Below are positions 1,887 through 50,344 of a stretch of 64,000 nucleotides of DNA, piece by piece. Source of the stretch: a virus (lineage: Duplodnaviria > Heunggongvirae > Uroviricota > Caudoviricetes); the IMG/VR virus record IMGVR_UViG_3300006899_000574, one strand, 5' to 3'. Each line of letters starts with the position of its first letter. The stretch's first letter is position 1. Position numbers and translations under genes: made by a program. Under the pieces are notes generated by a model. The model ran no database searches. It had not been told where the DNA came from and was given only the letters and a program-made list of their open reading frames with translations.

Positions 1887-2336
1887 TTACCTCCGGAGGA
1901 TGCGCCACCACTTCTGCAGTGGTCGCCACCAGGGCTCTGCCGGTGCAACCGGAGGCGGGAATTTTGTGTCCGCCTCTCGGACTATGCTTTCAGCCGTCAG
2001 GCGCTGAAGCGTCTCCCTCTGTCTTGCCTCTTCTCTGGCGTCGTATAGGAGTTCCTCCAGAGTCGACATCAACTCGCGCTCTGCCCTGCAGTTGATCTCC
2101 ACTACGGAGTCAAAGAGGGCCTTGAGTCTCTTGTCTTCCGTCAGTCCAAGAATACGCAGGGCCTCATATACATCGGCACCCCACTCTGTGATGACTTCGC
2201 TGAGGTGTTCACACAACGGACTTTGTATGCTGGACTGGATTCTGCTGTAAATCAGATGTATTTCGTGGGCGGACAGAGCGCGCGCTTTCCGCTCGCTGGA
2301 TTTCCGCTTGCTGGTCTTCTTCTTGTTGGTCTTCAT
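1887..2336 (-). CDS. hypothetical protein
   Basis: 149-aa ORF; its start codon overlaps the stop of the phosphoesterase gene (ATGA). Confidence 0.45.
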   Translation of the reverse strand: MKTNKKKTSKRKSSERKARALSAHEIHLIYSRIQSSIQSPLCEHLSEVITEWGADVYEALRILGLTEDKRLKALFDSVVEINCRAERELMSTLEELLYDAREEARQRETLQRLTAESIVREADTKFPPPVAPAEPWWRPLQKWWRILRR

Positions 2337-2923
2337 TCGTCGCCCTCGTATGTGTGATGGTCATGAGTTGTGATGATCCGTGTCGCCATGACTTTTACTA
2401 CGTGCTCCAGATTCACGGGATACAGACTGTGGCAGTCAACGCCGACGTCCATGACCTTGCGCAGGTAGTAGTCACCTTTCAGCGTGCCATGGCTGTGTCC
2501 GTGGAGACAGATGGCGCCACGATGATGCTTGTTCCACACCAGCATCGGAAAATGACAGACCTCAAACTCATGGCCCAGGGCTTTGAACCACATGAGATTC
2601 TCATTTCGCTGGAACAGCTTCCTGTAGCCGCGCTTGCGGTCGTGATTGCCCGTCACGAGAATCTTCTGGCCCTTCAGCCTCTTGAAGATTTCCTTACTGC
2701 GTTCTTCGTTGTGAAAGCTGAAGTCACCGACGTGATACACGGTGTCACGCTCTCCGACGCAGGAGTTGTAGCGGCCAATGATGTCGTCGTCATGTGCCGC
2801 AAGCGCCTGGCGGAGTTCATCTTCTCCCCAGGTATCGCCGGGTTCCAGGGCACGGAGATAGCCACGCAGGACCGCCATCTTCTTGTGGCCGAAGTGCTGA
2901 TCAGAAGTTGCCCAGATATTCAT
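2333..2923 (-). CDS. calcineurin-like metallophosphoesterase
   Basis: SDQHFGH (DxHxG), VTGNHDR (GNHD) and HGHSHG (GHxH) motifs. Confidence 0.7.
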   Translation of the reverse strand: MNIWATSDQHFGHKKMAVLRGYLRALEPGDTWGEDELRQALAAHDDDIIGRYNSCVGERDTVYHVGDFSFHNEERSKEIFKRLKGQKILVTGNHDRKRGYRKLFQRNENLMWFKALGHEFEVCHFPMLVWNKHHRGAICLHGHSHGTLKGDYYLRKVMDVGVDCHSLYPVNLEHVVKVMATRIITTHDHHTYEGDE

Positions 2924-2968
2924 ACTGCGGAAATCTCTCCTATCGAAATCAGCCCGGCGCCGATGCGT

Positions 2969-3226
2969 TCAGACCTGACACAGCCTGTGCGGGGGAAACT
3001 GCATGAAGAATACATACCGCCAGACGCCGCAGAGTTCGTCAAGTCTATGTCCACGATCTAACAAAAATCTTCTGCACATCTCTACTACTAGAGGCTCTTC
3101 CAGCGGCTCCAGTAGAAGGCTCCCATCGTGGCCGATAGTAGATTTGGGGGTGAAGTAACGGAACTGCCGCACGACCTGCGATTCCGGGAAGCAGAAATAC
3201 GTGTATTCTGACAAGGGCGTGATCAT
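2969..3226 (-). CDS. hypothetical protein (start at internal MITPL, ATGA overlap)
   Basis: ORF; coupling geometry with the upstream gene. Confidence 0.3.
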   Translation of the reverse strand: MITPLSEYTYFCFPESQVVRQFRYFTPKSTIGHDGSLLLEPLEEPLVVEMCRRFLLDRGHRLDELCGVWRYVFFMQFPPHRLCQV

Positions 3227-3693
3227 CTTCTGCCTTCGTGCTGGTCCAGCACCTGCCTGGCAAGGTCTCGCTGTTCCTCGCAATAGGCGATGTAGGATTG
3301 CAAAACGTCAGACGTGATGGGCGTGAGGCTTTTCATCTTCACATCGAGACGCTCTACCCCGGACTCGCGCAGAGCGCAGAAGGCTCCAATGCGTGAGTGC
3401 AGGACCATGACGTTATGTTGTTTTTGCAAGTCGTCGCGGTTGAGTTCGGAGTTGTAATCGTATATCTGTTTTTTGACCTGGTTCCAGATCGCACGAAGTG
3501 TCCAGTGTTTTGTGAGGTCGATTTTCACATAAATGCTACCGCACAGCGGTTCGTGATCCATGTTGGTTGCGCCGCTCCACAGAACAGCGGTCTTCTCCCG
3601 CTTGCTGATCTTGAACCCCATCCAGCGCAGGATGAGTGTTATCTCCTCTTGAGACGTGCGGCCGGCTATCTTGATAAGCTGTTTCATTGTCAT
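3223..3693 (-). CDS. hypothetical protein (start at MTMKQ, ATGA overlap with the AAA gene stop)
   Basis: ORF plus coupling geometry. Confidence 0.4.
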   Translation of the reverse strand: MTMKQLIKIAGRTSQEEITLILRWMGFKISKREKTAVLWSGATNMDHEPLCGSIYVKIDLTKHWTLRAIWNQVKKQIYDYNSELNRDDLQKQHNVMVLHSRIGAFCALRESGVERLDVKMKSLTPITSDVLQSYIAYCEEQRDLARQVLDQHEGRR

Positions 3694-5009
3694 GTCTTGA
3701 TTTTCTCCCACAGCAGTTGTTGCGCCACGTCTCGACACATCTCCTGGAACTCCGCCCCCGACATCCCTTCGCCTTTACTGATAAGATCCTCAAACCAGGT
3801 CTGATGCTCGTCTCCAAGAATTTTCCTTACGATAACCATGCGACCTTCGCGAGACGGAAGAGGGAAGTCGAGCACACGATCAATGCGGCCCGGACGTATC
3901 AAGGCGGGGTCGATGGCAGACTCGTCATTCGTTGTCATCATGGTCAGCACTCCATGCCGTGCTCGGGCTCCATCCAGCACATTCAGCAGGCAGTCGAATG
4001 TAATGGGATTCAGGTCTCCACGGGCCTGCGTATTGACCCTGCCATGGAAGATGTTATCGATGTCTTCAAAAACTGCTACGATTGTCTGGTCTGATGTATA
4101 ACGCTCCCATAGCAAGACCAGATCCGCATTTGTCATAGAACCTAAATCAAATACGATGAGAGGCAACTGCAATGTCTGAGCCAGTGCCCGAATGAAACTT
4201 GTCTTGCCATTCCCGGGTGCGCCCTTCAATAGAAAACCGCGCTTCCAGGGGATGTCGCGAGCCGCATACCAGTCACGGTGGGCGAACCAGAATTTCACTT
4301 CCTCGATCGCCGTTCGCATATCATCTGTCATCGCCAGACTGCACTCAATGGTAAGTCGGTTCTGATCTGCTGGCTGAACGTCCTCGCGGCGATAAGTTAC
4401 AGGAAACAATGTGTTTCCATCGGCGGTAGTGTCTTCCGGTTCTTGGGAGTCAGGCGATTTTGAACCTTTAGTAGAAGGGGAGTTAGCACGTCCTAGCGGA
4501 ACGTTCAGATTCCCGCCTCCAAGACTACCTGTGACTGTGCGTGTCGTGAACCGGCTGATAGCCATATCAGCACTGTCCAGATCCTCCTGAATCTCCCGGA
4601 GCATGCGATGCACGCCAAATCTCAGGGGTCGAAAATAGTACAGACGCGTATGCCCATAATCTCCGTCCGCCAACACGGAAAAAATCCAGGGCGCGCGCCG
4701 AGACAGATGTAACACCGGTAAGTACGTGGTTCTTAGATGATACAAGAATGCACTCACCAGTTTCTGCGTGGGCTTGTAAAACACGCGCCTGGTAAAAACT
4801 CTTGGAGGACTCAAGGAGAATCGGTAGGACGTCGCGCAGAGATACCGGAGAATAGCATTTGCGTCTCCTGAAACCTGCATCTCGGCGATGACAATTGCTA
4901 CTACTTTGCCTGCCCACAGGAGCATCTTCTCCCTGGCGGCGACCATCACAGTCAGTATGCCTCCAAGCCCCGCAGTTGCGGCGAGCGTTGAAAAATCAAT
5001 CGGTCCCAT
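3690..5009 (-). CDS. AAA+ ATPase with N-terminal transmembrane segments (BCS1-like architecture)
   Basis: Walker A GAPGNGKTS, Walker B VFEDID, second region of homology PALIRPGRIDR; hydrophobic N-terminus. Confidence 0.8.
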   Translation of the reverse strand: MGPIDFSTLAATAGLGGILTVMVAAREKMLLWAGKVVAIVIAEMQVSGDANAILRYLCATSYRFSLSPPRVFTRRVFYKPTQKLVSAFLYHLRTTYLPVLHLSRRAPWIFSVLADGDYGHTRLYYFRPLRFGVHRMLREIQEDLDSADMAISRFTTRTVTGSLGGGNLNVPLGRANSPSTKGSKSPDSQEPEDTTADGNTLFPVTYRREDVQPADQNRLTIECSLAMTDDMRTAIEEVKFWFAHRDWYAARDIPWKRGFLLKGAPGNGKTSFIRALAQTLQLPLIVFDLGSMTNADLVLLWERYTSDQTIVAVFEDIDNIFHGRVNTQARGDLNPITFDCLLNVLDGARARHGVLTMMTTNDESAIDPALIRPGRIDRVLDFPLPSREGRMVIVRKILGDEHQTWFEDLISKGEGMSGAEFQEMCRDVAQQLLWEKIKT

Positions 5010-5226
5010 TTATCTCTCCTGTTGTCAAAATACTCAGTGCTTGCTGTGCGTCGCCGTCAGACGCAAACCACGCCTGTAGGATGTCGATCTCCGGTCTCCC
5101 GGTCTGCTCCTTGAGTCTGTGGATACTTGCGTTGGCGCGGTTGACGGCCTCGTGATAAGCATTGCGCTGGTCCTCTGCAACGCGACGTCGAAGCCAGTGT
5201 TCGGCTTGTTCGTAGATATCAGTCAT
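4996..5226 (-). CDS. hypothetical protein
   Basis: 76-aa ORF. Confidence 0.3.
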   Translation of the reverse strand: MTDIYEQAEHWLRRRVAEDQRNAYHEAVNRANASIHRLKEQTGRPEIDILQAWFASDGDAQQALSILTTGEINGTD

Positions 5227-5492
5227 GACTCGCGCTGGGTTCCAGCGTCAGCGCAATCCTGGTGCGTACGGAATTTTGCCACACCCAGGCATACCATTGC
5301 CCGTTCTCCAGCCAGATGATCTTCTGGACCCCCGGCTGATCCCAGGCCGCCCTTACGGAATCCGGAAGTGATACGCGGTGTCCACATCCGCCGCAAAACT
5401 GCGTAGCCCCGCTCCTGCCAGACCAGCGAGAGCTTCTCGTAGGTCTCAAGTCTGGCTTCTTGTTGTTGAATAAAGAACGGTGAAAGGCTCAT
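5223..5492 (-). CDS. hypothetical protein (start at MSLSPFF, ATGA overlap with the ThyX stop)
   Basis: ORF plus coupling. Confidence 0.35.
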   Translation of the reverse strand: MSLSPFFIQQQEARLETYEKLSLVWQERGYAVLRRMWTPRITSGFRKGGLGSAGGPEDHLAGERAMVCLGVAKFRTHQDCADAGTQRES

Positions 5493-7393
5493 GATTTTTT
5501 CTCCAGAATCTTCCTGAATTGTACTACCCCAGCAGGTAGATTGCCTGACATCCATGGGTCAAGAACAATTTTCTTGTCAACTCCCCAGTCGCTACGCGGG
5601 GCCAGCCAGAACGCCAGGTCGGGATGCATGACCTGCATTTCAGCCGGTGAGTTCCCTGACACACAAGTTTTTCCATTTCTACGAACAATGAGTAACCCAG
5701 TCGAAACTGTGGCACAGTAGACCTCTCCTGTATATTTGATCTTAGAGAAGTTCTTACGTAGATGTCTGGAGTCGTTGAGGATCGACGAGGGCCTACGGCA
5801 CAGATTTAAGGAGAACACGGGTTGGGACTTGTGTGAACGTCGGTGTCGGTTCCCTTGTCGTAACGAAAAATTGTATCCATGTAGTGCCCCCAAGGTTTGG
5901 ATCTGATCTGCTAGTTTCGGACTAGTAGTCGCATACGTCCAAGTGTGCCTTTTGATGCTTCCGTCGGAATTTTTCAAGCCGTCCATCAGTGCGTGAACAA
6001 ACTCTGGAGAAGACTCATATATCCCATCAGGGAGACATTTTTGCCGATTGATATCATATAGCAAAGTATGGAATTCCTTAGCGAGACCGTCTCTCGCAAC
6101 CCAATAGGTGTTGTAATGCGGTTTTTCTACTAACTCAAAATTCAGGGTCTTACATATTGCGCGCAGATACGCAATTTTGCGAGGTTTCTTCAAATGGAAA
6201 GTTAACCTGCGGCCTCCGTGTTGCCCTATATCACGGGGGACACTCCCATCTCCAAGAAAAAATCCAACCAGTTTACCGAACTGGGGGTCGTCCTCGCTCC
6301 ACATCAAACAGTCTACATAGTTTGCTTTGGACGTAAGCGCGCAGTTGAGCATTTTTAAAGGAGAGGCCACGACTACTTCAAAAGGCGATTTTGCTACCCT
6401 TTCATTTGCAGGCCTGAGAGAGAAAACCTGACTCCCCCAAGGTTTTGAGGCATAGATCTGATGAGAGGGAGTGATCATCAAATTAAACCGGTGCGAAACT
6501 ATATGATACATCTCTTCATTGATCAGGCTATAGGACAGGAGTTGAGCTGGCCGTTCGAACCCCTGAAATTTTGAATCCCGAGGGTCCACGGTAGCTAAAC
6601 TATCATTTGTCTGAACGTTAGGCCACTTGATGAACCCTCTAGTTGTAAGCACCTCTGTCTCCGCGTCATAACAGGCGTGGATCGGCTGACTGCCGACGAG
6701 CTTCTGGTAGGTCCAGAGGTCATCTGCTATGGTGCTGGGCTTGTTGTTGCGCAGATACGAAACCCTCGCACAGCGTGCCACTGATGTCCGGATGTCTTGC
6801 AGGATCTCCGGTACGTTCTTTTCTACATACAATCTGTACGCATGCGTACGGCGGTCATCCACGTAGGGCAGGTGGATTTCGCGACGTGTCGGCGTGCTTA
6901 CGGCGAACGCATCGGCCATCTTCCGGGCCAATATCTGCATGTCGTGCTGGGCATCGCCATGGAGTCTGAGGTTGAAGAAGTTCTGTAACCCCGGAAGGCC
7001 AGTCGTCATTACAACTCTGACGTAGAGAAAGGGCTCCAGGAGCCTGTTGCAGATTTCCTTGTGGACCCCGAGTGCGTGCAGACATCCGGCGAACATCTTC
7101 GCACAACGCATGGCGGCTTTCCATGTCAGCCTGGCGACGGCATCCCGCCAGCCCGTCATATCAGCCCGAGGTTGCATGCCGGGGCCATTGACGGGGAACT
7201 CCGCCGGCACGTAGCAACAGCTCAATAGCAGAGTCTTGTGTGGCACTGCACGAGATGACGCCGCCGAGCGCGAGAACGTTCTGTGCGTATTGAGTTGCGC
7301 CAATAGGAAGCGCGGGAAGCACAGCTCGAACGTCAGAACGCGGACGCCATTGATGCTGGAGTCCAGGATGAGCTTTGCAGACGTCACGTTCAT
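5489..7393 (-). CDS. thyX: flavin-dependent thymidylate synthase ThyX, interrupted by an intein
   Basis: N-extein FELCFPRFLLAQLNTHRTFSRSAASSRA and NFFNLRLHGDAQHD align to the ThyX core (T. maritima [29 protein letters not shown] / NFLNLRADSHAQWE); the intein is described in the next feature. Confidence 0.6.
   Translation of the reverse strand: MNVTSAKLILDSSINGVRVLTFELCFPRFLLAQLNTHRTFSRSAASSRAVPHKTLLLSCCYVPAEFPVNGPGMQPRADMTGWRDAVARLTWKAAMRCAKMFAGCLHALGVHKEICNRLLEPFLYVRVVMTTGLPGLQNFFNLRLHGDAQHDMQILARKMADAFAVSTPTRREIHLPYVDDRRTHAYRLYVEKNVPEILQDIRTSVARCARVSYLRNNKPSTIADDLWTYQKLVGSQPIHACYDAETEVLTTRGFIKWPNVQTNDSLATVDPRDSKFQGFERPAQLLSYSLINEEMYHIVSHRFNLMITPSHQIYASKPWGSQVFSLRPANERVAKSPFEVVVASPLKMLNCALTSKANYVDCLMWSEDDPQFGKLVGFFLGDGSVPRDIGQHGGRRLTFHLKKPRKIAYLRAICKTLNFELVEKPHYNTYWVARDGLAKEFHTLLYDINRQKCLPDGIYESSPEFVHALMDGLKNSDGSIKRHTWTYATTSPKLADQIQTLGALHGYNFSLRQGNRHRRSHKSQPVFSLNLCRRPSSILNDSRHLRKNFSKIKYTGEVYCATVSTGLLIVRRNGKTCVSGNSPAEMQVMHPDLAFWLAPRSDWGVDKKIVLDPWMSGNLPAGVVQFRKILEKKS
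5651..6673 (-). mobile_element. intein with LAGLIDADG homing endonuclease inside thyX (about residues 241-581)
   Basis: Block A CYDAETEVLTTRG, block B TPSH, two LAGLIDADG motifs (LVGFFLGDGSV, HALMDGLKNSDGSI), block F/G VYCATVSTGLLIVRRNGKTCVSGN followed by Ser. Confidence 0.55.
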
Positions 7394-7605
7394 CTTGCCT
7401 CCTTCTGCGCCAGCGCCGCTATTACTTTTTCTTTTAACGGTTGGAATCTTATATCCTGTTTATTCAGGATGTAGTTCTCATGATGAGACTCGCCGTCAAA
7501 ATGAGGCGTGTCATGGATTTTGTGCATCTTCTTCAGATACGTCCGTAACCGCGCTTCAGACATACGGGAAATCTCGACATCAGTAACAATACGCACGGTC
7601 TTCAT
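7390..7605 (-). CDS. hypothetical protein
   Basis: 71-aa ORF, ATGA coupling on both sides. Confidence 0.4.
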   Translation of the reverse strand: MKTVRIVTDVEISRMSEARLRTYLKKMHKIHDTPHFDGESHHENYILNKQDIRFQPLKEKVIAALAQKEAR

Positions 7606-7973
7606 CTTGATATCTCTACGGCGGCTCGATAGGCCTCAGCGATTTCACGCAGACTGTAGATATCCAGTGGGTTTTCTTCCTGTGCTCCTCTTGCAGTCAA
7701 CATCCTCGGTCTGACGATCTGTTCGATGGCTTCCGTAGTAGGAAGTATCTCAAAGCCCTCGCCCCAGGTTTCGTCGTTGATGTCATCCAGTTCGACGAAG
7801 TTAAACTCATACTTGAACGCCTTCCAGGCGAGATCGGAACTGCTCTCCCATTGCGGCCACTCGTCGTCTTTGCTGACGAACTGCTCGTAAGTGATGGGCG
7901 GCGTGATTACAGGCAAGTCTTTCAGTTTGACGACTCTGCCCTTGAACTTGTCTTCATATGTATTGTAAGTCAT
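7602..7973 (-). CDS. hypothetical protein
   Basis: 123-aa ORF, coupled. Confidence 0.45.
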   Translation of the reverse strand: MTYNTYEDKFKGRVVKLKDLPVITPPITYEQFVSKDDEWPQWESSSDLAWKAFKYEFNFVELDDINDETWGEGFEILPTTEAIEQIVRPRMLTARGAQEENPLDIYSLREIAEAYRAAVEISR

Positions 7974-8461
7974 GCTGGTTTGTCCGTGGATTTCTCCTCT
8001 GAAGTCCGCAGAGCCGGCCAGGGGTATCGTTTATCATTTCCAAGTTCGTCTAACGCCGCTTGTAAGGCGTCGCGCCGGGCAAAATATATCTCTGTGTTTG
8101 TCCGATTCTTAGAATAGCCGCAACATATGTAAGTTTCTCCTACATGATTCAGGTTTAAGTAGTAAGGGTAAGGCACACGGTCGAGATTAGGCGGGTTCAG
8201 CTTATCTGCGTAGTAGCGAATAATCGCCCACGCGATGGCATGCTTGCTGGCCCAGATAACTTGCGCTCGGGTTGTATAGGCCCAGCGCAGGCCGAGTTGC
8301 GGCCCTGTATAGCCGAGACTCGGGTCCAAAAGAAAGCCCGGCACATACCCGGGTGCCCCCCAGGGTAACTCCAGTGCGGGGCTCTTCATCATCAGCCGCT
8401 GGAGTTCCTCCTGTATGTCTTGCAATTGTTTCTGAAGCTCTGCGATTCGTGTTGAGTCCAT
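7970..8461 (-). CDS. hypothetical protein
   Basis: 163-aa ORF. Confidence 0.45.
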   Translation of the reverse strand: MDSTRIAELQKQLQDIQEELQRLMMKSPALELPWGAPGYVPGFLLDPSLGYTGPQLGLRWAYTTRAQVIWASKHAIAWAIIRYYADKLNPPNLDRVPYPYYLNLNHVGETYICCGYSKNRTNTEIYFARRDALQAALDELGNDKRYPWPALRTSEEKSTDKPA

Positions 8462-8464
8462 CTT

Positions 8465-9346
8465 TTACTCCTCGATGACATGCTTGCCGTAGAGCGCAAT
8501 CAAAATCTCCCACCACTTGCGCTTCCACAACGGAAGCCTTTCGCCCACGTGTGTGGCGATCTCTTTGATCTCTCTGGCAGAGAAGAGGTAGAAAACGGTC
8601 GTAGGTTGTTGCACGGGCTCCGAGTGCTCTTGCAGGATGAGTCTCCAGGGATGTATACCGGACTCCACCAGGCCCCGGTATGGCCCTCCTGTGATTACCA
8701 GTTGTCGGAACGTGCGGTGAGCGGGCGGTGGATCTATTTTGACAGGCTGGACTTCCACCCAGGCGTGAGCAAGCAGTTGCGTCGGGTAACTCGTGCGAAC
8801 AATGCGTAATACGTTTTCCGCAGTCACATTACCTTCGGGGGTGACTTTTGATACCGACTCCTGGTGATACTTGCGCTGGTTTTCCAGCAGGGTTTGTGCA
8901 ATGCGCTGTCTTTCGGCTTGACGCTCTGCGCGCCTGCGCTCCTCGTCCTGCCGACGTTCTGCGGACATCGGGACAACAGTGCCCTGGCGTGAGAGCAGGT
9001 GGAAATCCGGTAGTCCGAAACCAAAATTGCCGTCGTTATCCAACTCGACGAATTGATCATCGACGGAAGTCGCAAAGTTTCCGATAAACTCGGGTGTGAT
9101 ATCCGAGTGCTGGAGGGACTCCGTTGGCCAGTAATAGTAGAAACCTCCGATCTCGAATTCAATTTCTTCGGCTGTCTCCGCAGAGGTATCCCAGTGGACA
9201 CTGACCTCGTGGTCTTTGACTGTACGCAGACACAAGCCGTCGCTGTCAATATTGAAAGCCACTCCATTGATCACGCCGGCGTTAATACTGCCGCGCTTGA
9301 TGGCGCCAAAGATGCGCTTACTCGGGTAGTTGATGTCGTCTGGCAT
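8465..9346 (-). CDS. hypothetical protein
   Basis: 293-aa ORF. Confidence 0.5.
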   Translation of the reverse strand: MPDDINYPSKRIFGAIKRGSINAGVINGVAFNIDSDGLCLRTVKDHEVSVHWDTSAETAEEIEFEIGGFYYYWPTESLQHSDITPEFIGNFATSVDDQFVELDNDGNFGFGLPDFHLLSRQGTVVPMSAERRQDEERRRAERQAERQRIAQTLLENQRKYHQESVSKVTPEGNVTAENVLRIVRTSYPTQLLAHAWVEVQPVKIDPPPAHRTFRQLVITGGPYRGLVESGIHPWRLILQEHSEPVQQPTTVFYLFSAREIKEIATHVGERLPLWKRKWWEILIALYGKHVIEE

Positions 9347-9401
9347 GTCGTCCTCCGGGCGAGCGAGGCTTCAGCGTTTCCCGAAGCCCCACTCTGTGTT
9401 C

Positions 9402-10214
9402 TTACTTAATACCGATGAACGGCAGAGGCGCTTGTTCTCCGAGATAAATAGGCATGACACCGTTCCATTTCTTGATGGCTTCCGCCTGATTCATGACGCG
9501 CAGATACTCCAGAGTCTGGCCTCCGGAGCTTTGAGTGCGAAGCCTGTTGGCTTCTGACTCTCCTCGTGCGCGTGCAATGTTGGCTTCTGCTTCTGCCTTG
9601 GCGGCCTCGGCATTTTGTTGCGCCTTCATCTTGTTGTTGAGCGCTTCTTGAACTTCTTCGGGCGCCTGAATGCGGCCGAGGATCGTGACGTTCTCGACGT
9701 CAAACCCCTCAGCAGAGACGGCTTCTTTCACCATACGGTTCACGCGTGCGATGAATTCAGTCTTCTTGGGACCATTGATTTCATCGTATGCCATCGTGGA
9801 GGCCGCTTGATTGAACTTGTCCTGTACGATGTTTCGTAGATAGACATTGGTGATGAAGTCCATGCCGTTGCGGTGACGCTGGAAAATAGCAGATACAGAT
9901 TCCTTTCTGATTGAATACGATACGCCCACATCAACCTTCAGGCTCAAGCCGTTGAAGTCGTTGAAACGAATGGCCTCGTCTCCTGGGTTGCCGTCACTAC
10001 TGTCTGCTGACCATCGCACGGTTTGCACGAAGATCGGAAACGTGTAGAGTTCTGTATTCCAGCTCGGCCAGTAGCGCCCCACACCAAGAACCTCCTGGTC
10101 CACTCCTTTATCACCTCCCAGCTTGTTGACTCTGATGCCAACGTACCCGGGCTCCACGTAATTGCAAGCCGACAGCATGACTGCTGTCATCAGCAATAGA
10201 ATTGATTTTCTCAT
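9402..10214 (-). CDS. SPFH / band-7 family lipoprotein (HflC/prohibitin-like)
   Basis: Lipoprotein signal MRKSILLLMTAVMLSAC; SPFH core followed by an Ala/Glu-rich coiled coil (KMKAQQNAEAAKAEAEANIARARGESEANR). Confidence 0.7.
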   Translation of the reverse strand: MRKSILLLMTAVMLSACNYVEPGYVGIRVNKLGGDKGVDQEVLGVGRYWPSWNTELYTFPIFVQTVRWSADSSDGNPGDEAIRFNDFNGLSLKVDVGVSYSIRKESVSAIFQRHRNGMDFITNVYLRNIVQDKFNQAASTMAYDEINGPKKTEFIARVNRMVKEAVSAEGFDVENVTILGRIQAPEEVQEALNNKMKAQQNAEAAKAEAEANIARARGESEANRLRTQSSGGQTLEYLRVMNQAEAIKKWNGVMPIYLGEQAPLPFIGIK

Positions 10215-10465
10215 TTTGAATCCTCCTCTGGTTTCAGAAATTTGTTATAGATCCAGTAACCCGCCCCCACTGCCCCGAGGATCAGTAGCAGTGCTGGCCA
10301 GACGAACGACAGCACGCTTAACGCCACGGAGCCGATAACCAGTCCGCCGCCTAACTCCACGGCGTCAATCTTCTTCCGGTCGTAAAGACGGAGAAGCAGG
10401 ACAGTGCCGCCTGCAATGGTGGACACTCCGGTTATGATCGCTCCCATCAGCCACCACCAGGGCAT
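10211..10465 (-). CDS. small integral membrane protein (start taken at internal MPWWW)
   Basis: Two to three hydrophobic helices; ATGA coupling. Confidence 0.4.
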   Translation of the reverse strand: MPWWWLMGAIITGVSTIAGGTVLLLRLYDRKKIDAVELGGGLVIGSVALSVLSFVWPALLLILGAVGAGYWIYNKFLKPEEDSK

Positions 10466-10650
10466 CAGGGGCTCTCCCGAAAGAATTTCCGCACTCGGCC
10501 TGCGATCCACGCAATCGCGAGGTAAACCAGAACGATAATAATTCCGGCTCCCGCAACCACAAATTCCGTCTGCTGAGAAGATATGAGTTCGGGCAGGACC
10601 AGGCCCACCAGTATCAGGAGCCCGATTGTCAGTAACAAAATTTTATGCAT
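10465..10650 (-). CDS. small membrane protein
   Basis: 61 aa with two hydrophobic helices. Confidence 0.4.
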   Translation of the reverse strand: MHKILLLTIGLLILVGLVLPELISSQQTEFVVAGAGIIIVLVYLAIAWIAGRVRKFFRESP

Positions 10651-11206
10651 GTGACACCTCCTCTTGGGAGCCGGCGGCCAGTCTGCGGCTCGCGAGTTCC
10701 TGCATTTCTTCCGGTGTTAATTTCGTAACCGGGTGTTCTGCGGCAAACTTCTTGATGGCTTGCGCTAGGTGCCTGCCCTTGGACTTTGCACTCAGCATCT
10801 CCTGGTAATGCTCGTTTGAAACGTTGCTGTATCGATAGACGTGTCCGGAGCGGAATTCCACAAACAGTGTGTTGGCTTCGTGGGCGATGGCCCTGATGTT
10901 GCTGGACTGTACTTCTGTGAATTGAATCATTTGTCCAAACCTCTTTTTTTCTCTTTTTTTCATCCACCAGTCAAAAGCTCTTGCAGGCGGAAAAAATTGG
11001 CGACGCACTACCAGCTTGAGCAGAATAACGGGCAGTATGAGAAACCAGATCAAAGCGAGCATTACATTCTGCTCGTAGTCAATACCACCTCCGTCTCGTC
11101 GCCACCAATCGTAATTTTGGAGATCCAGATAGCAGATCACCCAGTAACCCAGAGTGTAACCTGCCGCATAGATGACGACGATGATAGCGACAACAAGCGC
11201 AGTCAT
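10643..11206 (-). CDS. membrane protein with C-terminal KTSC domain
   Basis: VQSSNIRAIAHEANTLFVEFRSGHVYRYSNVSNEHYQEMLSAKSKGRHLAQAIK fits the KTSC consensus; the N-terminus is hydrophobic. Confidence 0.6.
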   Translation of the reverse strand: MTALVVAIIVVIYAAGYTLGYWVICYLDLQNYDWWRRDGGGIDYEQNVMLALIWFLILPVILLKLVVRRQFFPPARAFDWWMKKREKKRFGQMIQFTEVQSSNIRAIAHEANTLFVEFRSGHVYRYSNVSNEHYQEMLSAKSKGRHLAQAIKKFAAEHPVTKLTPEEMQELASRRLAAGSQEEVSHA

Positions 11207-11466
11207 CACGGCTCCACCACGCACACAATGCTCGTGGCTTCGAAGATATAGAAATTCTTGCCCTCGACTGTGATCGTCGCCATCCTGGCGCCGCGTGCCC
11301 ACATCACTCTGTCTCCAACCGCGATGCCTTCCACTTCTTGCCCTACCGAGACCACGGTAGCAACCCGGGTTTCGTCGGGCTGTAACTCCACGATTCCCGA
11401 TGCCCGTGTGTGTTCGGTCTTTACTTCATCCAGTTCCAGGATGACTCTCTTACCCAGTGCTTGCAT
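11206..11466 (-). CDS. GroES-like co-chaperonin (Cpn10 / T4 gp31-like)
   Basis: 86 aa; the pattern LGKRVILELDEV...ASGIVEL...ATVVSVG...VGDRVMW mirrors the GroES beta-barrel layout. Confidence 0.5.
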   Translation of the reverse strand: MQALGKRVILELDEVKTEHTRASGIVELQPDETRVATVVSVGQEVEGIAVGDRVMWARGARMATITVEGKNFYIFEATSIVCVVEP

Positions 11467-14620: not shown

Positions 14621-16627
14621 CTATTGGATTTGCATCACTTTGAATGCCTGTCGTGCGGCATCTATCCGTTTGCGGAAATCGACGTCCGCAAAATCCGGCT
14701 TCTTGCCGCTGGCCTTATATGCCAGGCGCGTCTGTTGCTGTTCATAGCTCACCGATGGCATGTAGCCGACTTTGTGTATGCTGAAGGCGGCGTGTGCCAT
14801 GGCATCACTGACGTCCTTTGCGTGAACTCCGCATTTCGAATTCTCGAAGTCACCTCTGTAGTCGTTGACTCTCATGCCCTTGCTGTGATCAATCTTCTCC
14901 GGGCCCCTTTTGTTCTTTGCTCTCGTGCGGTAGAGGCTGTCGAGATTGTTCCTGACGAAAACATTGGGCCCCACTTTGAGTCTGCCGCTGAGCATTCTGG
15001 AGTAGAGCTGTGTATAGGGCTGGATGTCGATATCCACCGAAGACCTTACGGCATTGATGTCGTTCCTCACCAGATACTGGATGAGGTTGGCGCTTTGGTA
15101 CTGGTCAACACTGACCTGCTCGATGTGAACTCTGCCTTTGTCCCGGAGATCACGGATGAACATCTGGATGGCTTCGAGGTTGATGCCGTTGGGGCCCGGT
15201 GCCACCGCAAATGCGAAGTCGAAGATCGTCGTGGCGGTACCATCTTCCATTTGTTCCTCGTGAGCCATGGCGATGCCTGCGACGTCTCCTCGAACGCTGG
15301 TTGCCAGATCCACTCCGATGTAGCGCGGCGCTGACGGCGCGCGGATCAGCGACAGATCAACTCCGTTCCCTTTTGAAAAGAACAGGTGGCTGACGGCGTT
15401 CCAGATCAAATCCTCCGGGATGGACTTGCTGTCGGCCACAACTGAGGCTTCGACGTTGGGAAGCGTGGGGTCGAAGATCGACGCAATCAGACTGCGTTGT
15501 TGCAGGAACTTGCTCTCGCTGGTGGCGGGCTGGCCCGCGATGTCTTTGATGGACTTCAGCAAGTTGTCTTCAAAAGCCTGTTTGACATCAATTGGAGGGG
15601 ATACCACCAGACCGGGGGCGTAGTTGTGTTCCTCTCCGGGTTCCAGGATACGAGCGGGAGTCTCGCCATCCCCCACGCAGACATGGAAGACCTGGGAGTT
15701 GTCTTTGTGGTATGCGGGGAAAAACTTCTCACAGAGTTCCGGAGCATCCCACTGCTTGCGCCAGCGGAAGTATACCTCTGGCCGGTATTGCATCTTGCTG
15801 ATGATGTGCTGTTCGATCTGCGACTCCGCCAGGTTTGCCGACGTATCCAGCAGTGTGAACGCCAGGTAGTTGTTGCCAACAGTGCCTCGAATACGACTGA
15901 CGGTATCGGTGTAGATGCGGAAAATCTGCTCCTCGGTGGCCCCGGCTTTCTCGATAAAGAAGCCGATCTCTGAGATGAAGGCGCAGATGATGTTGGCGCC
16001 GATGATTGACAGCGCGTCGTCATTACCCGTCACGAGTTGCAGGCCAGATGCCAGCGTGATCTCCCCGACTCTCGCGGCCTCTGAATACACGATGATGTCG
16101 TCTCCAGCGGCTTCCTGCTCTTCTCGCACGTTGTCGCGGAAGTGTGTCTTCTGGAACCTCGGGCTCTGCTCTAGAATCTCGAACAGCGGCTGAATGTAGA
16201 GTTCATACACCTTCTCATACTTGAAGCTCATCAAGTAGATGGAAAGCGCGGAGGTTGAGATCAAATTGTAGGCCCCCGCCATGCTGGTAAGGTGGTGCAT
16301 GTAGACTATGACATACGCCATGAGCAGGACAGATCCCACGCTTTTTCCCATACGGACAGCGCCGTATAACGCCACCTGCGAATACTTTCCGCTGAGGATA
16401 TTACAGAAGTCCTCCTTGACGTGTGCAAAGAGTTTGTTGGCCACTCCCTCCGGAAGCCAGCCGTTGCGGGGGTCGAGGAACTCCTCCGGGCTGGGGGGCG
16501 GTTTGCGAAATGTGTGTCCCTGCAACTGGCGGAGCAACGCAGTGTTGCCGCCGAGGATCTCCTTCACTGCCTGCTGTTCGACGGCACTGAGCTTGTTGAA
16601 ATCAGCGGCAAGATTTTCTGGCAACAC
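14621..16627 (-). CDS. terL: terminase large subunit
   Basis: Walker A-like ATPase GAVRMGKS, C-terminal nuclease-like YIGVDLA..D; 668 aa, a gp17-like size. Confidence 0.85.
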   Translation of the reverse strand: MLPENLAADFNKLSAVEQQAVKEILGGNTALLRQLQGHTFRKPPPSPEEFLDPRNGWLPEGVANKLFAHVKEDFCNILSGKYSQVALYGAVRMGKSVGSVLLMAYVIVYMHHLTSMAGAYNLISTSALSIYLMSFKYEKVYELYIQPLFEILEQSPRFQKTHFRDNVREEQEAAGDDIIVYSEAARVGEITLASGLQLVTGNDDALSIIGANIICAFISEIGFFIEKAGATEEQIFRIYTDTVSRIRGTVGNNYLAFTLLDTSANLAESQIEQHIISKMQYRPEVYFRWRKQWDAPELCEKFFPAYHKDNSQVFHVCVGDGETPARILEPGEEHNYAPGLVVSPPIDVKQAFEDNLLKSIKDIAGQPATSESKFLQQRSLIASIFDPTLPNVEASVVADSKSIPEDLIWNAVSHLFFSKGNGVDLSLIRAPSAPRYIGVDLATSVRGDVAGIAMAHEEQMEDGTATTIFDFAFAVAPGPNGINLEAIQMFIRDLRDKGRVHIEQVSVDQYQSANLIQYLVRNDINAVRSSVDIDIQPYTQLYSRMLSGRLKVGPNVFVRNNLDSLYRTRAKNKRGPEKIDHSKGMRVNDYRGDFENSKCGVHAKDVSDAMAHAAFSIHKVGYMPSVSYEQQQTRLAYKASGKKPDFADVDFRKRIDAARQAFKVMQIQ

Positions 16628-47355: not shown

Positions 47356-47525
47356 TTACGGGCCTCCCACCTTCTCATCGTAACCGGAACCCCTGAAGCC
47401 GGGCATCCCTTGGTGCAACACTTGACAGTCTCATCCCAGGTGTCCCAGCGGTAAGGTCGTTTACCGCAGAACGGACACAGTTTTGCATTCAGCACTCGAT
47501 CATTCTTGTCTGTTTGGATCTTCAT
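47352..47525 (-). CDS. small zinc-ribbon protein (57 aa, below the ORF-track cut-off)
   Basis: Hand translation MKIQTDKNDRVLNAKLCPFCGKRPYRWDTWDETVKCCTKGCPASG... Confidence 0.3.
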   Translation of the reverse strand: MKIQTDKNDRVLNAKLCPFCGKRPYRWDTWDETVKCCTKGCPASGVPVTMRRWEARK

Positions 47526-48513
47526 ACAGTCCTCCTACTGGGATAAATTCCACAACCCAGACCCACGGGTTTGATTCCCATGATGCGCGATCTTTGTTGA
47601 TTGAATCCCACAGCGCACGAAAGGCTCCGGTAGCTGTCGCATACCCATGCGGTGCGCCGCCAGCAAATCCATAAGCCAGACCGTCCTGCCACGGCCAGGA
47701 CACCAGACCTTCAGCTAATGCATCTTTTTCGCTGATGTCCTGCAAGCGCTCCATTCTTACGTCAGTGATTTCTAACGTTATGCGGGATGCCCAGCGAGGC
47801 GAACAATCTATTCTATTATCGAAAGGAATCCATGTCTCATTCTTCAGTATGCGGGCTATCGTCTTGGGTGATAGATTATATTCTTTCGAGAGAGTCCATG
47901 CGCTTTTACCGGACACCCGCATTTCTTCAGCCTTTTGCATGGTGCATTTAGCATTATGATGGTCTTCATGGATTCCTCGCCCATGGGCTTTTCTGTCCAA
48001 CCAATTGCTTTCGTAATTACCCCAGTCAAGGTTTTCCGGGGCGTTGTCCAGCCTGTCCCCACTCAGATGGCGAACGCATGGCTTAACTATTGACTTTGGT
48101 GCTGGTCCATACCATGCCTCACATACAACAACATGGACACTTACGTTTACGTCTGCGCCACCTTTTCGAAGAGTAGTTCGCTCATACCCAGAGTTCGAGA
48201 TATGTGATTTTATTGGTTTCCAAATGCCTGTAGATTGCGACCACAATCGTCCTTTAATATCTGCCGCATACTTAGCATCGTAACCGGTTAAGACCATCGC
48301 TGGGATCAGACGATCGCCTTGCTGGCCGTAAGGGCAGACGATGCGTGAGCCCAGACCGTGATTAAACCTGTCTACCTCGTCATTGAAATAGCCATCATCT
48401 GCGATCCGCCGCGTCTGCGTCTTGCGTCCTTCGAGAATTGCGCGGACCATCGGCCCGGAGAATAAGATTGGTCGTTCCTTCATTTCGAAGGATGCTCCTT
48501 CGCACGGACACAA
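47500..48513 (-). CDS. ASCH-domain protein interrupted by an in-frame HNH endonuclease domain
   Basis: N-terminus ILFSGPMVRAILEGRKTQTRR and C-terminus ITLEITDVRMERLQDISEKDALAEG...VWVVEF form an ASCH fold; the central VHVVVCEAWYG...VRHLSGDRLDNAPENL is an HNH_3-type nuclease. Confidence 0.55.
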   Translation of the reverse strand: MCPCEGASFEMKERPILFSGPMVRAILEGRKTQTRRIADDGYFNDEVDRFNHGLGSRIVCPYGQQGDRLIPAMVLTGYDAKYAADIKGRLWSQSTGIWKPIKSHISNSGYERTTLRKGGADVNVSVHVVVCEAWYGPAPKSIVKPCVRHLSGDRLDNAPENLDWGNYESNWLDRKAHGRGIHEDHHNAKCTMQKAEEMRVSGKSAWTLSKEYNLSPKTIARILKNETWIPFDNRIDCSPRWASRITLEITDVRMERLQDISEKDALAEGLVSWPWQDGLAYGFAGGAPHGYATATGAFRALWDSINKDRASWESNPWVWVVEFIPVGGLYEDPNRQE

Positions 48514-49454: not shown

Positions 49455-49922
49455 CTACTCGTTGTCCCGGACTGAGGAAGCCCGGTCGATGTAGAGCACG
49501 CCATCGAGATGGTCGATTTCGTGCTGGATCACGGTGGCATCCCAACCCGTCAGTGTTTCACGGCGGTGCTCCCCCAGAACATCGTAGTACATGAGGTCTA
49601 CGGTCTCCCGCCGCCTCACCCAGCCGTGCTTGCCGGGAACCGATAGGCAGGCTTCCCAGTTTCCCATCAGCTCGCCGCTGATTTGCGTGACCACGGGATT
49701 GACGTAGACATATGCCTTGTCCGCTCGAACGACAACCACAACACGCAGGAGTACGCCGATCTGCGGCGCCGCGAGACCAATGCCGCCGGCGTTTCGCATG
49801 ACTGTAATCATGTGGGTCGCCAGGCGCATGAGCGGCGCACCGAACCAGGGCCGCGCTACCTCTACGGCCTGTCGTCTGAGAGTCGGATGCTCAGAACTCA
49901 GGATGATGTTACTGTAAGTCAT
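49455..49922 (-). CDS. def: peptide deformylase
   Basis: GIGLAAPQIG, EACLSVPG and HEIDHLDG motifs; start taken at MTYSNIIL. Confidence 0.8.
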   Translation of the reverse strand: MTYSNIILSSEHPTLRRQAVEVARPWFGAPLMRLATHMITVMRNAGGIGLAAPQIGVLLRVVVVVRADKAYVYVNPVVTQISGELMGNWEACLSVPGKHGWVRRRETVDLMYYDVLGEHRRETLTGWDATVIQHEIDHLDGVLYIDRASSVRDNE

Positions 49923-50344
49923 GGACTGCGGTTCCAGACGAACAGAAGATCGAGTTTGGTTTGTTTCCAGTCTGAGCCAGTAGAGCGATACGGAGTGGAG
50001 ACGCCGCACAACGTGTTGGCGCACTTGATGCGTAAGCCCTTCCAGAAACTTTCGTCATACCGGGCATCGCACCCGCAGTGCTTGCAGGGGCTCGGGCGAG
50101 AATAGTCTGCGGGTGTCGGGGAATCTTTCCCGAGGCTCTCTGCTCGCAACTTCCAGTGGTCGCGGGCCGTCTCCAGTTCGAGGATTACATGCCCGATGCG
50201 GAGTCTCGTGGTCAATGACAGCGGCGACAGGTCCAGATACCTGTTGAGCGCTTCCAGTGCGGCTTGCTCTTTTTCCGTGAAGAGCCGCAACCTGCGGTCG
50301 TAATCACGGTCCACCATTTCGTCTTCATTTAGAGGTGTATTCAT
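49919..50344 (-). CDS. hypothetical protein (start at MNTPLNE)
   Basis: ATGA coupling; C-terminal CKHCGC...C..C. Confidence 0.4.
   Translation of the reverse strand: MNTPLNEDEMVDRDYDRRLRLFTEKEQAALEALNRYLDLSPLSLTTRLRIGHVILELETARDHWKLRAESLGKDSPTPADYSRPSPCKHCGCDARYDESFWKGLRIKCANTLCGVSTPYRSTGSDWKQTKLDLLFVWNRSP

Follow-up and report, generated by a model that had tools for sequence, protein, structure and literature searches.

The 64,000-nucleotide stretch of viral DNA analysed here (the window; IMG/VR virus record IMGVR_UViG_3300006899_000574, Caudoviricetes) encodes on its minus strand a 634-amino-acid (aa) protein in which a ThyX-like thymidylate synthase is interrupted by an insert with the sequence features of a LAGLIDADG intein (Table 1). 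A GGAGG sequence precedes the ATG of the open reading frame (ORF), an ATGA overlap joins this start to the stop codon of the upstream ORF, and tight downstream coupling of the gene is also found in the gene calls of an identical metagenome contig. Identical copies of the 634-aa precursor are encoded by three metagenome contigs, including JGI 3300005039 Ga0068519_1000062.

A preliminary description, made from the sequence alone, had divided the protein into an N-extein, an insert and a C-extein of 240, 341 and 53 aa, and had listed splicing blocks A, B, F and G together with two LAGLIDADG motifs. Translation reproduces this partition exactly, all of the blocks and motifs are found, with coordinates checked, and the motifs of the ORF are not a chance pattern. 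In the precursor, Pfam recognizes Thy1 (8e-14, aa 19-168) and LAGLIDADG_3 (5e-4, aa 466-521), the latter with 20.6 bits, slightly under its cut-off of 22.5 bits; a match to PHROG 85 'thymidylate synthase' (1.5e-60), made in two parts, spans both exteins.

Table 1. Features of the intein-containing gene, followed by other features of the window; a slash marks a splice junction or insertion point here and in the text
Feature	Coordinates	Strand	Remarks
Precursor ORF, 634 aa, ATG start	5489..7393	minus	single unbroken ORF; stop codon 5489-5491
N-extein, aa 1-240	6674..7393	minus	ThyX core and relocated ARCARVSY...PIHA module; ends QPIHA; from Pfam Thy1 and family alignment
Variant ThyX signature NTHRTFSRSAASSRA	7247..7291	minus	canonical form RHRxxSxxxxSxRY; T36/H37/R38, S46 and R48 family-conserved
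SVARCARVSY helix	6755..6784	minus	counterpart of canonical N-terminal AARVSF helix, here after the core; hhalign E 1.7e-5
QPIHA, final five N-extein residues	6674..6688	minus	H239 is the invariant His of HxSPxEH
Intein, aa 241-581 (341 aa)	5651..6673	minus	HINT splicing domain and LAGLIDADG endonuclease domain; CYDAETEV...CVSGN
Intein block A CYDAETEVLTTRG	6635..6673	minus	Cys1 nucleophile
Intein block B NLMITPSHQIYAS	6446..6484	minus	Thr B:7, His B:10; B:12 is Ile, not Trp; TPSH at aa 308-311
First LAGLIDADG motif LVGFFLGDGS	6242..6271	minus	catalytic Asp present (GDG)
Second LAGLIDADG motif ALMDGLKNSDGS	5957..5992	minus	catalytic Asp present (SDG)
Intein block F GEVYCATVSTGLLIVRRNG	5672..5728	minus	Cys560 at F:4, where Asp is usual in inteins
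Intein block G and +1 residue, KTCVSGN/S	5648..5671	minus	penultimate Gly580, terminal Asn581, +1 Ser582
C-extein, aa 582-634 (53 aa)	5492..5650	minus	begins SPAEM (remainder of HxSPxEH motif), then family-specific tail with conserved GNLxxGxxQ[FY]RK
Two free-standing HNH endonuclease ORFs and peptide deformylase gene (Pfam 3.6e-42)	653-1183, 47500-48513, 49455-50024	minus	

Precise insertion and an intein-free allele

Removal of aa 241-581 from the precursor in silico leaves a spliced product of 293 aa, with which a protein search finds 2,046 proteins. The best 120 of the 2,046 are mostly 265-345 aa long and cover 80-100% of the query, and the insert is absent from every one of them; the homologue P0001 (291 aa) is 78% identical to the spliced product over 99% of the query. 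The junction, HA/SP, lies within the sequence P-x-H-A-S-P-A-E-H, in which H239, S241, P242 and E244 (numbered in the spliced product) are invariant in a 14-sequence alignment and likewise among 120 sequences. Since excision restores this invariant motif and full-length colinearity with intein-free homologues, the insert is a clean insertion.

An intein-free allele in a related phage, which the preliminary description had proposed to look for, is provided by P0001. Its gene lies on a Logan contig of 18.9 kb (L001) whose gene order is in large part that of the window, with a P-loop protein, a SpoIIE-like phosphatase, a phrog_1745 homologue, the ThyX-like gene and an AAA ATPase in common, and the spliced coding sequence aligns with it at 70% nucleotide identity, gap-free at the junction. 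The spliced product reads QPIHA-SPAEMQVMHPDLAF across the junction; the joined extein DNA across the insertion point reads CAGCCGATCCACGCC/TCACCGGCTGAAATG, and the L001 allele there reads CGGCCCGGGCATTTC/AGTCCAGCAGAGATG. The two alleles agree at 11 of 24 bases around the insertion point (13/24 differ); identity reaches 90-95% in segments that lie about 60-150 nt upstream of the junction. In protein terms the intein-free allele of L001 reads PGHF/SPAEM, and the window, together with the family consensus, PIHA/SPAE. This diverged junction may reflect an allele that is not cleaved, or it may reflect flanks that were co-converted during homing.

Predicted fold and splicing residues of the intein

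The best Foldseek matches in the PDB to an AlphaFold2 (AF2) model of the precursor (predicted local distance difference test score, pLDDT, 89) are endonuclease-bearing inteins, namely TliVMA, PhoVMA, PI-SceI, PI-PfuI and PI-TkoII, at E 2.6e-15 to 9e-9; the next match is the ThyX of Thermotoga maritima (E ~5e-7). On this model the insert is predicted to fold as a HINT domain split by a two-motif LAGLIDADG endonuclease domain. A phmmer comparison of the intein with PDB sequences returned nothing meaningful. Among proteins, a word-indexed search with the intein finds 186, and all those of the 120 listed that have a precomputed Pfam domain carry Thy1; a full HMMER search finds 5,577 representatives at E <= 1e-3, with 108 at E <= 1e-30. 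In both searches the nearest intein relatives are 37-44% identical.

Cys241, the TxxH of block B, Asn581 followed by Ser582, and the acidic residues of both LAGLIDADG motifs are those of a class 1 intein; the penultimate His, which is common in inteins of this class and not obligatory, is replaced by Gly580. The penultimate Gly reported in the preliminary description, as an unusual Gly-Asn, is confirmed, but it is not peculiar to the window copy: it is found in 118 of 119 aligned inteins of the clade. The search pattern behind this alignment contained Cys1, the Arg-Arg of block F and the terminal Asn, which are therefore partly invariant by construction. The block B His and a Cys at position 4 of block F are each present in 119/119, each LAGLIDADG Asp is present in 116/119, and the +1 residue is Cys in 73 members, Ser in 38 and Thr in 8. 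Gly-Asn is thus characteristic of the clade as a whole, not a flaw of the window copy. Splicing without a penultimate His is documented (PMC5050341, PMC7664689), and a phage intein with penultimate Gly splices to completion, its change to His slowing the reaction (PMC5050341).

Were the insert a fused endonuclease domain that does not splice, the 634-aa protein would be the final product. The missing penultimate His and block-F Asp would be in keeping with this, but an insert that splits an invariant active-site motif one residue past its His would then leave a broken enzyme. Moreover, each of the 119 clade members retains Cys1, TxxH, the terminal Asn and a +1 nucleophile, and although the search pattern partly imposed Cys1 and Asn, it did not impose the conservation of the block B His or the block-F Cys; the predicted HINT fold flanks the endonuclease domain on both sides; and the gene belongs to a translationally coupled operon, as does its intein-free counterpart. 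A non-splicing fusion is accordingly considered very improbable.

The Cys at F:4 recalls class 3 inteins, which are marked by a WCT triplet (Trp B:12, Cys F:4 and Thr G:5), usually lack an N-terminal nucleophile (PMC2807308, PMC5050341), and use the F:4 Cys as obligate first nucleophile (PMC2807308). Membership of class 3 was considered and rejected for the window intein, which has Ile at B:12, Cys at F:4, Ser at G:5 and a Cys1. A hybrid of classes 1 and 3, in which the block-F Cys would act besides or instead of Cys1, or a disulfide between Cys1 and block F that would make splicing redox-dependent, could account for the invariance of the F:4 Cys throughout the clade and for the Ser or Cys at G:5, and has a precedent in the role of that Cys in class 3. 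Against it, the class 3 signature is incomplete across the clade, with Ile or Met at B:12, a residue other than Thr at G:5, and Cys1 always present, so that we consider such a route quite improbable.

Rearranged ThyX architecture of the exteins

The intein-free P0001 was modelled in place of the spliced product, with a 120-sequence alignment, giving a pLDDT of 93.5 and a predicted template modelling score (pTM) of 0.91. The five top structural neighbours of this model are the ThyX proteins of PBCV-1 (4fzb), Helicobacter pylori (3ah5), Mycobacterium tuberculosis (2af6) and T. maritima (5chp), and PolB (4p5a). The ThyX fold on which the preliminary description had made its proposal for the joined exteins depend is therefore recovered, by way of the predicted structure of a 78%-identical allele. 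Together with clean excision and the predicted intein fold, this bears out the proposal that a ThyX-like gene is interrupted by a complete LAGLIDADG intein.

Scored against profile hidden Markov models for ThyX after removal of residues 241-581, as had been suggested, the exteins pass one and miss the other: Pfam Thy1 (PF02511) matches the spliced product with 57.3 bits (gathering score 24.8), at profile positions 58-190 only, but the cut-off of the TIGR02170 thyX equivalog, matched at profile positions 60-206, is missed. The two matches together use residues 19-169 of the protein and the last two thirds of the profiles. The part of ThyX that precedes these positions is resembled by the C-terminal region of the spliced product, SVARCARVSY...DDL.TYQKLVGS.PIHASPAE. 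When residues 195-247 are moved before residue 16, the Thy1 match widens to profile positions 10-190 and its score rises from 57.3 to 62-63 bits, and the match to PDB 6j61 improves from E 0.19 (residues 19-165) to 8e-4 (residues 10-203).

Profile-profile comparison (hhalign) of the phage family with 104 canonical ThyX exteins spliced in silico gives a core alignment at E 2e-17 and a second, non-colinear alignment of family columns 229-270 with canonical columns 31-74 (E 1.7e-5, probability 78%). This second alignment pairs GH-x-SPxEH of the family with GH/SSPxxH of canonical ThyX, which in turn aligns with GHxxxLEH of the solved ThyX proteins of Corynebacterium glutamicum and M. tuberculosis. 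By these alignments, the ARVSF...GHxSPxEH module, N-terminal in canonical ThyX, follows the core in the PHROG 85 family, so that the order of the two is not colinear. The C-extein consists of the second half of the HxSPxEH motif and a family-specific conserved tail, GN[LF]xGWxQ[YF]RK, and it aligns well within its own family. It does not align to ThyX C-termini, as the preliminary description had remarked, but this ceases to be a puzzle, since the phage family carries the canonical N-terminal module at the C-terminal end.

The significance of the rearrangement extends beyond the window. A tblastn search finds the ThyX-like family in 1,063 of 50,697 phage records, including phages of Escherichia, Pseudomonas, Vibrio, Klebsiella and Caulobacter, in which its usual annotation is 'thymidylate synthase'; thus more than 1,000 sequenced phages carry a rearranged ThyX that is annotated plainly as thymidylate synthase. 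Nothing describing a permutation of ThyX was found in the literature searched.

Indications that the intein is mobile

The base composition of the intein is foreign to the gene that harbours it. The intein has a GC content of 46.2% and a GC content at third codon positions (GC3) of 48.1%; the corresponding values are 57.0% and 69.6% for the exteins, and 54.7 +/- 1.6% and 63.7 +/- 5.4% (mean +/- standard deviation) for 13 long ORFs of the window. The distribution of the intein among cyanobacterial ThyX orthologues is patchy: copies with and without it occur, and intein-free ones are found in sister genomes.

A second locus shows the reverse pattern. The P-loop protein of the window (14621-16627, minus strand, 668 aa, YGAVRMGKS) is intein-free, and is 91% identical to an L001 homologue (2240-5335, 1,031 aa) that contains a 363-aa HN-type LAGLIDADG intein in its Walker A motif (YGATR/CHGAG...VTHN/CGKT). 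The two phages therefore have reciprocal alleles: with intein in the ThyX-like gene and without it in the P-loop gene in the window, and the opposite in L001. The 668-aa P-loop protein, which has no Pfam or PHROG match, is possibly the large terminase.

These observations bear on whether the intein still homes. It might instead splice but have an endonuclease that is inactive or without targets, and persist as a resident, vertically inherited element. The distance of its nearest relatives would suit such an element, as would the results that no second copy of the window allele appeared in scans of IMG/VR and JGI metagenomes and that the sole close intein-free allele, with its 13 of 24 differing bases around the insertion point, may not be cleavable. 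On the other hand, both LAGLIDADG catalytic Asp residues and the entire 341-aa frame are intact; the GC3 of the intein shows no drift to the phage value, a point in favour of a recent arrival; and the reverse pattern in a related phage at the P-loop locus indicates that inteins appear to move in this lineage. An intein that has ceased to home is therefore judged rather unlikely. The window and L001 form a useful pair for homing studies, with a homing site that is directly testable.

Predicted function and overall interpretation

The signature of the spliced enzyme, THRTFSRSAASSRA, retains the His, the second Arg, both Ser residues and the last Arg of RHRxxSxxxxSxRY, with Thr in place of the first Arg and Ala in place of the Tyr. 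The family-invariant residues H239, S46, R48, R117 and R143 align with the canonical catalytic set: R117 is close to where EVAR of T. maritima ThyX aligns, and R143 is the Arg of NLRxxxDAQ. From the alignments, H239 would correspond to His53 in T. maritima numbering; PDB entries of H53A and H53D mutants are among the Foldseek matches of the precursor model. The spliced enzyme most likely makes deoxythymidine monophosphate (dTMP) from deoxyuridine monophosphate (dUMP) for phage DNA synthesis in a flavin-dependent reaction. The unspliced precursor is expected to be inactive, because the intein splits a flavin/folate-site motif one residue after its His.

A different product deserves consideration. 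The spliced protein may be a ThyX-derived enzyme other than a dTMP synthase, such as an enzyme whose reaction ends with 5-hydroxymethyl-dUMP or whose substrate is a different pyrimidine nucleotide. A score under the TIGR02170 cut-off, the signature THR...SSRA in place of RHR...SxRY, the rearranged architecture with its additional conserved tail, and the presence of PolB, a UMP/dUMP methylase, among the top five structural neighbours (the fold tolerates a change of substrate) would all accommodate this. Against this, the residues aligning with the catalytic His of HxSPxEH, with the Arg of SxR that binds phosphate and with the Arg of NLR-x-x-x-AQ are invariant throughout the family, and the family is routinely annotated as thymidylate synthase in the 1,063 phage records, which come from lineages that are not known for modified thymine. 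A role in base hypermodification, which the preliminary description had raised, gains no support: none of the approximately 45 window ORFs scanned against Pfam or PHROGs matches a kinase or transferase family of hypermodification pathways, and known pathways of thymidine hypermodification begin with a ThyA-type dUMP hydroxymethylase (PMC8989533). A product other than dTMP is accordingly regarded as improbable.

What the analysis establishes is the anatomy of the gene, how precisely the insert is placed, the homologies, the folds predicted for the two parts, the deviant base composition of the intein and its scattered occurrence. With a probability of roughly 0.8, the ORF is the precursor of a phage ThyX-like, flavin-dependent thymidylate synthase, split inside its HxSPxEH motif by a mobile class-1-type LAGLIDADG intein. 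Several points weigh against this interpretation. The TIGR02170 score of the spliced product is 51.8 bits, under the cut-off of 87.9; the first Arg of the signature is changed to Thr and its Tyr to Ala, as they are across the family; and aa 586 (5636-5638, minus strand; residue 245 of the spliced product) is Met in SPAE[H], where the family has His. This Met is common to the window protein and P0001, and His occupies the position in more than 90% of the family. No report was found of an assay on any member of the permuted ThyX family. Gly and Cys stand where a penultimate His and a block-F Asp are usual, so that the chemistry may depart in detail from that of textbook class 1 inteins. Finally, the intein of Ter ThyX (PMC3620165), the sole experimentally spliced ThyX intein that could be traced, probably differs from the window intein both in kind and in insertion site.

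For the window protein we infer splicing, homing through the endonuclease, and dTMP synthase activity, by the following steps. After translation, Cys241 would form a thioester at the Ala240-Cys241 bond; the N-extein would be transferred to Ser582; cyclization of Asn581 would free the intein; and an O-to-N shift would link Ala240 to Ser582, rebuilding ...PIHA-SPAEM... in the 293-aa enzyme. Homing would begin when the endonuclease domain cleaves the motif-encoding DNA of an intein-free allele, and repair would then copy the intein into that allele. That either the rearranged ThyX, with its THR...SSRA signature and tail, has chemistry beyond dTMP, or the clade splices by a route between classes 1 and 3 or one that is redox-gated, is on the whole unlikely; were an intermediate or redox-gated splicing route true, thymidylate supply during infection would be conditional on splicing.

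Phage lineage and genome context

The lineage to which the window belongs has few PHROG or Pfam matches, and most of its large proteins are without a family match. A megablast search with positions 5000-8000 of the window found no match in the 50,697 phage records, and the precursor, when used to scan IMG/VR and JGI metagenome contigs, found no relatives there. Nearly all long ORFs of the window lie on the minus strand, and it contains no tRNAs. The interval that separates the phrog_1745 homologue from the ThyX-like gene has different contents in the window (7602-11302, minus strand) and in L001 (8486-9999): the former has a KTSC-domain protein, an SPFH/Band 7 protein and several unknown ORFs, and the latter an RNA ligase and one small ORF.

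Relationship to known inteins and thymidylate synthases

Canonical ThyX (PF02511, TIGR02170; for example T. maritima TM0449, PBCV-1 A674R and M. tuberculosis ThyX) has the HxSPxEH module before the core, whereas the window protein has it after the core; the window protein further differs in its signature THR...SSRA, its additional conserved C-terminal tail and its TIGR02170 score below the cut-off. Inteins of the clade occupy three sites in ThyX proteins: (a) the site used in the window, HxSPxEH, which is also occupied in the canonical ThyX of Corynebacterium phage P1201 and of cyanobacteria and in no fewer than 20 other permuted-family representatives; (b) YPRFI[LH]/CEL.TH, in Acinetobacter phage AbaM_B9 and four Escherichia phages; and (c) NE/CSRRY. 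Several distant members that have Gly-Asn and the block-F Cys (P0415, P0420, P0421 and P0347) are present in multiple copies in RpoB-like proteins of 2,500-3,200 aa, at a site that resembles the RpoB motif GDKL/S.RHG.KG; the clade is therefore not restricted to ThyX.

The gp22 protein of Corynebacterium phage P1201 (NC_009816.1, 'contains hypothetical intein') has an intein of the same clade, with 27% identity by tblastn over query aa 185-585. Like that of the window, it is of LAGLIDADG type with a penultimate Gly and the block F/G signature VYCATV...VRRNGK..SGN/S, and it lies in the same motif, directly before S-x-x-E-H (KHH/C...SGN/SVLEH). The host protein of P1201, by contrast, is a canonical, colinear ThyX with the motif about 90 aa from the N-terminus, followed by RHRHFGFSQESQRF, whereas in the window the motif occupies aa 239-245 of the 293-aa product of a permuted family, in a phage unrelated to P1201. 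That the intein interrupts this one motif both in canonical and in rearranged ThyX independently supports the correspondence of the two HxSPxEH modules.

Acinetobacter phage vB_AbaM_B9 (AB9_121) and Escherichia phages 19-1-2, 24-2-1, 18-1-2 and TH18 (Vequintavirinae) share with the window both the permuted family and the intein clade. Their precursors are 28% identical to that of the window over 87% of its length, with VYC[VA][TS]V...VRR[DE]G...SGN, but the inteins are at another site, YPRFI[LH]/CEL.TH[KR], before the THR signature near the N-terminus, and have Cys as the +1 residue; these records are annotated only as 'thymidylate synthase', with the intein unmentioned.

The ThyX inteins of cyanobacteria (Synechococcus elongatus, Microcoleaceae, Okeania, Nodularia and Calothrix) belong to the same clade, with 30-33% identity in full-length alignments, and interrupt the same ThyX motif as in the window (GHYG/C...GN/CLEHP) at a point shifted by about one residue; unlike in the window, the hosts are cellular, the ThyX is canonical and the +1 residue is Cys. 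An Okeania sp. ThyX (P0248, 898 aa) contains two inteins: one of the LAGLIDADG Gly-Asn type at GHYG/C...CGN/CIEH, and elsewhere an unrelated HN-type mini-intein at RTHRIGC/CLSGNTKV...VVHN/SFDVQSYRY. Ter ThyX, from Trichodesmium, was considered as support for the window clade and dropped, as the Okeania ThyX carries both kinds of intein and the Ter ThyX intein probably belongs to the second, HN-type kind. No Trichodesmium entry was found in a genome-contig scan with a cyanobacterial intein-bearing ThyX, which returned mostly intein-free cyanobacterial ThyX, or in a protein search.

Mycobacteriophage inteins, including those of the cluster C1 ThyX-like proteins (TdS) and of the Bethlehem gp51 recombination directionality factor (RDF), likewise occupy active-site motifs of nucleotide-metabolism proteins, and in them the penultimate His is often replaced by Gly, with splicing shown for one (PMC5050341); this likeness is drawn from their published description, and the hosts are actinobacteriophages. 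As an intein alone, the insert in the window is one further allele of a clade that targets ThyX, of little weight by itself: both the clade and the ThyX site that it occupies were known before, and what is new is the allele and the phage lineage that carries it.

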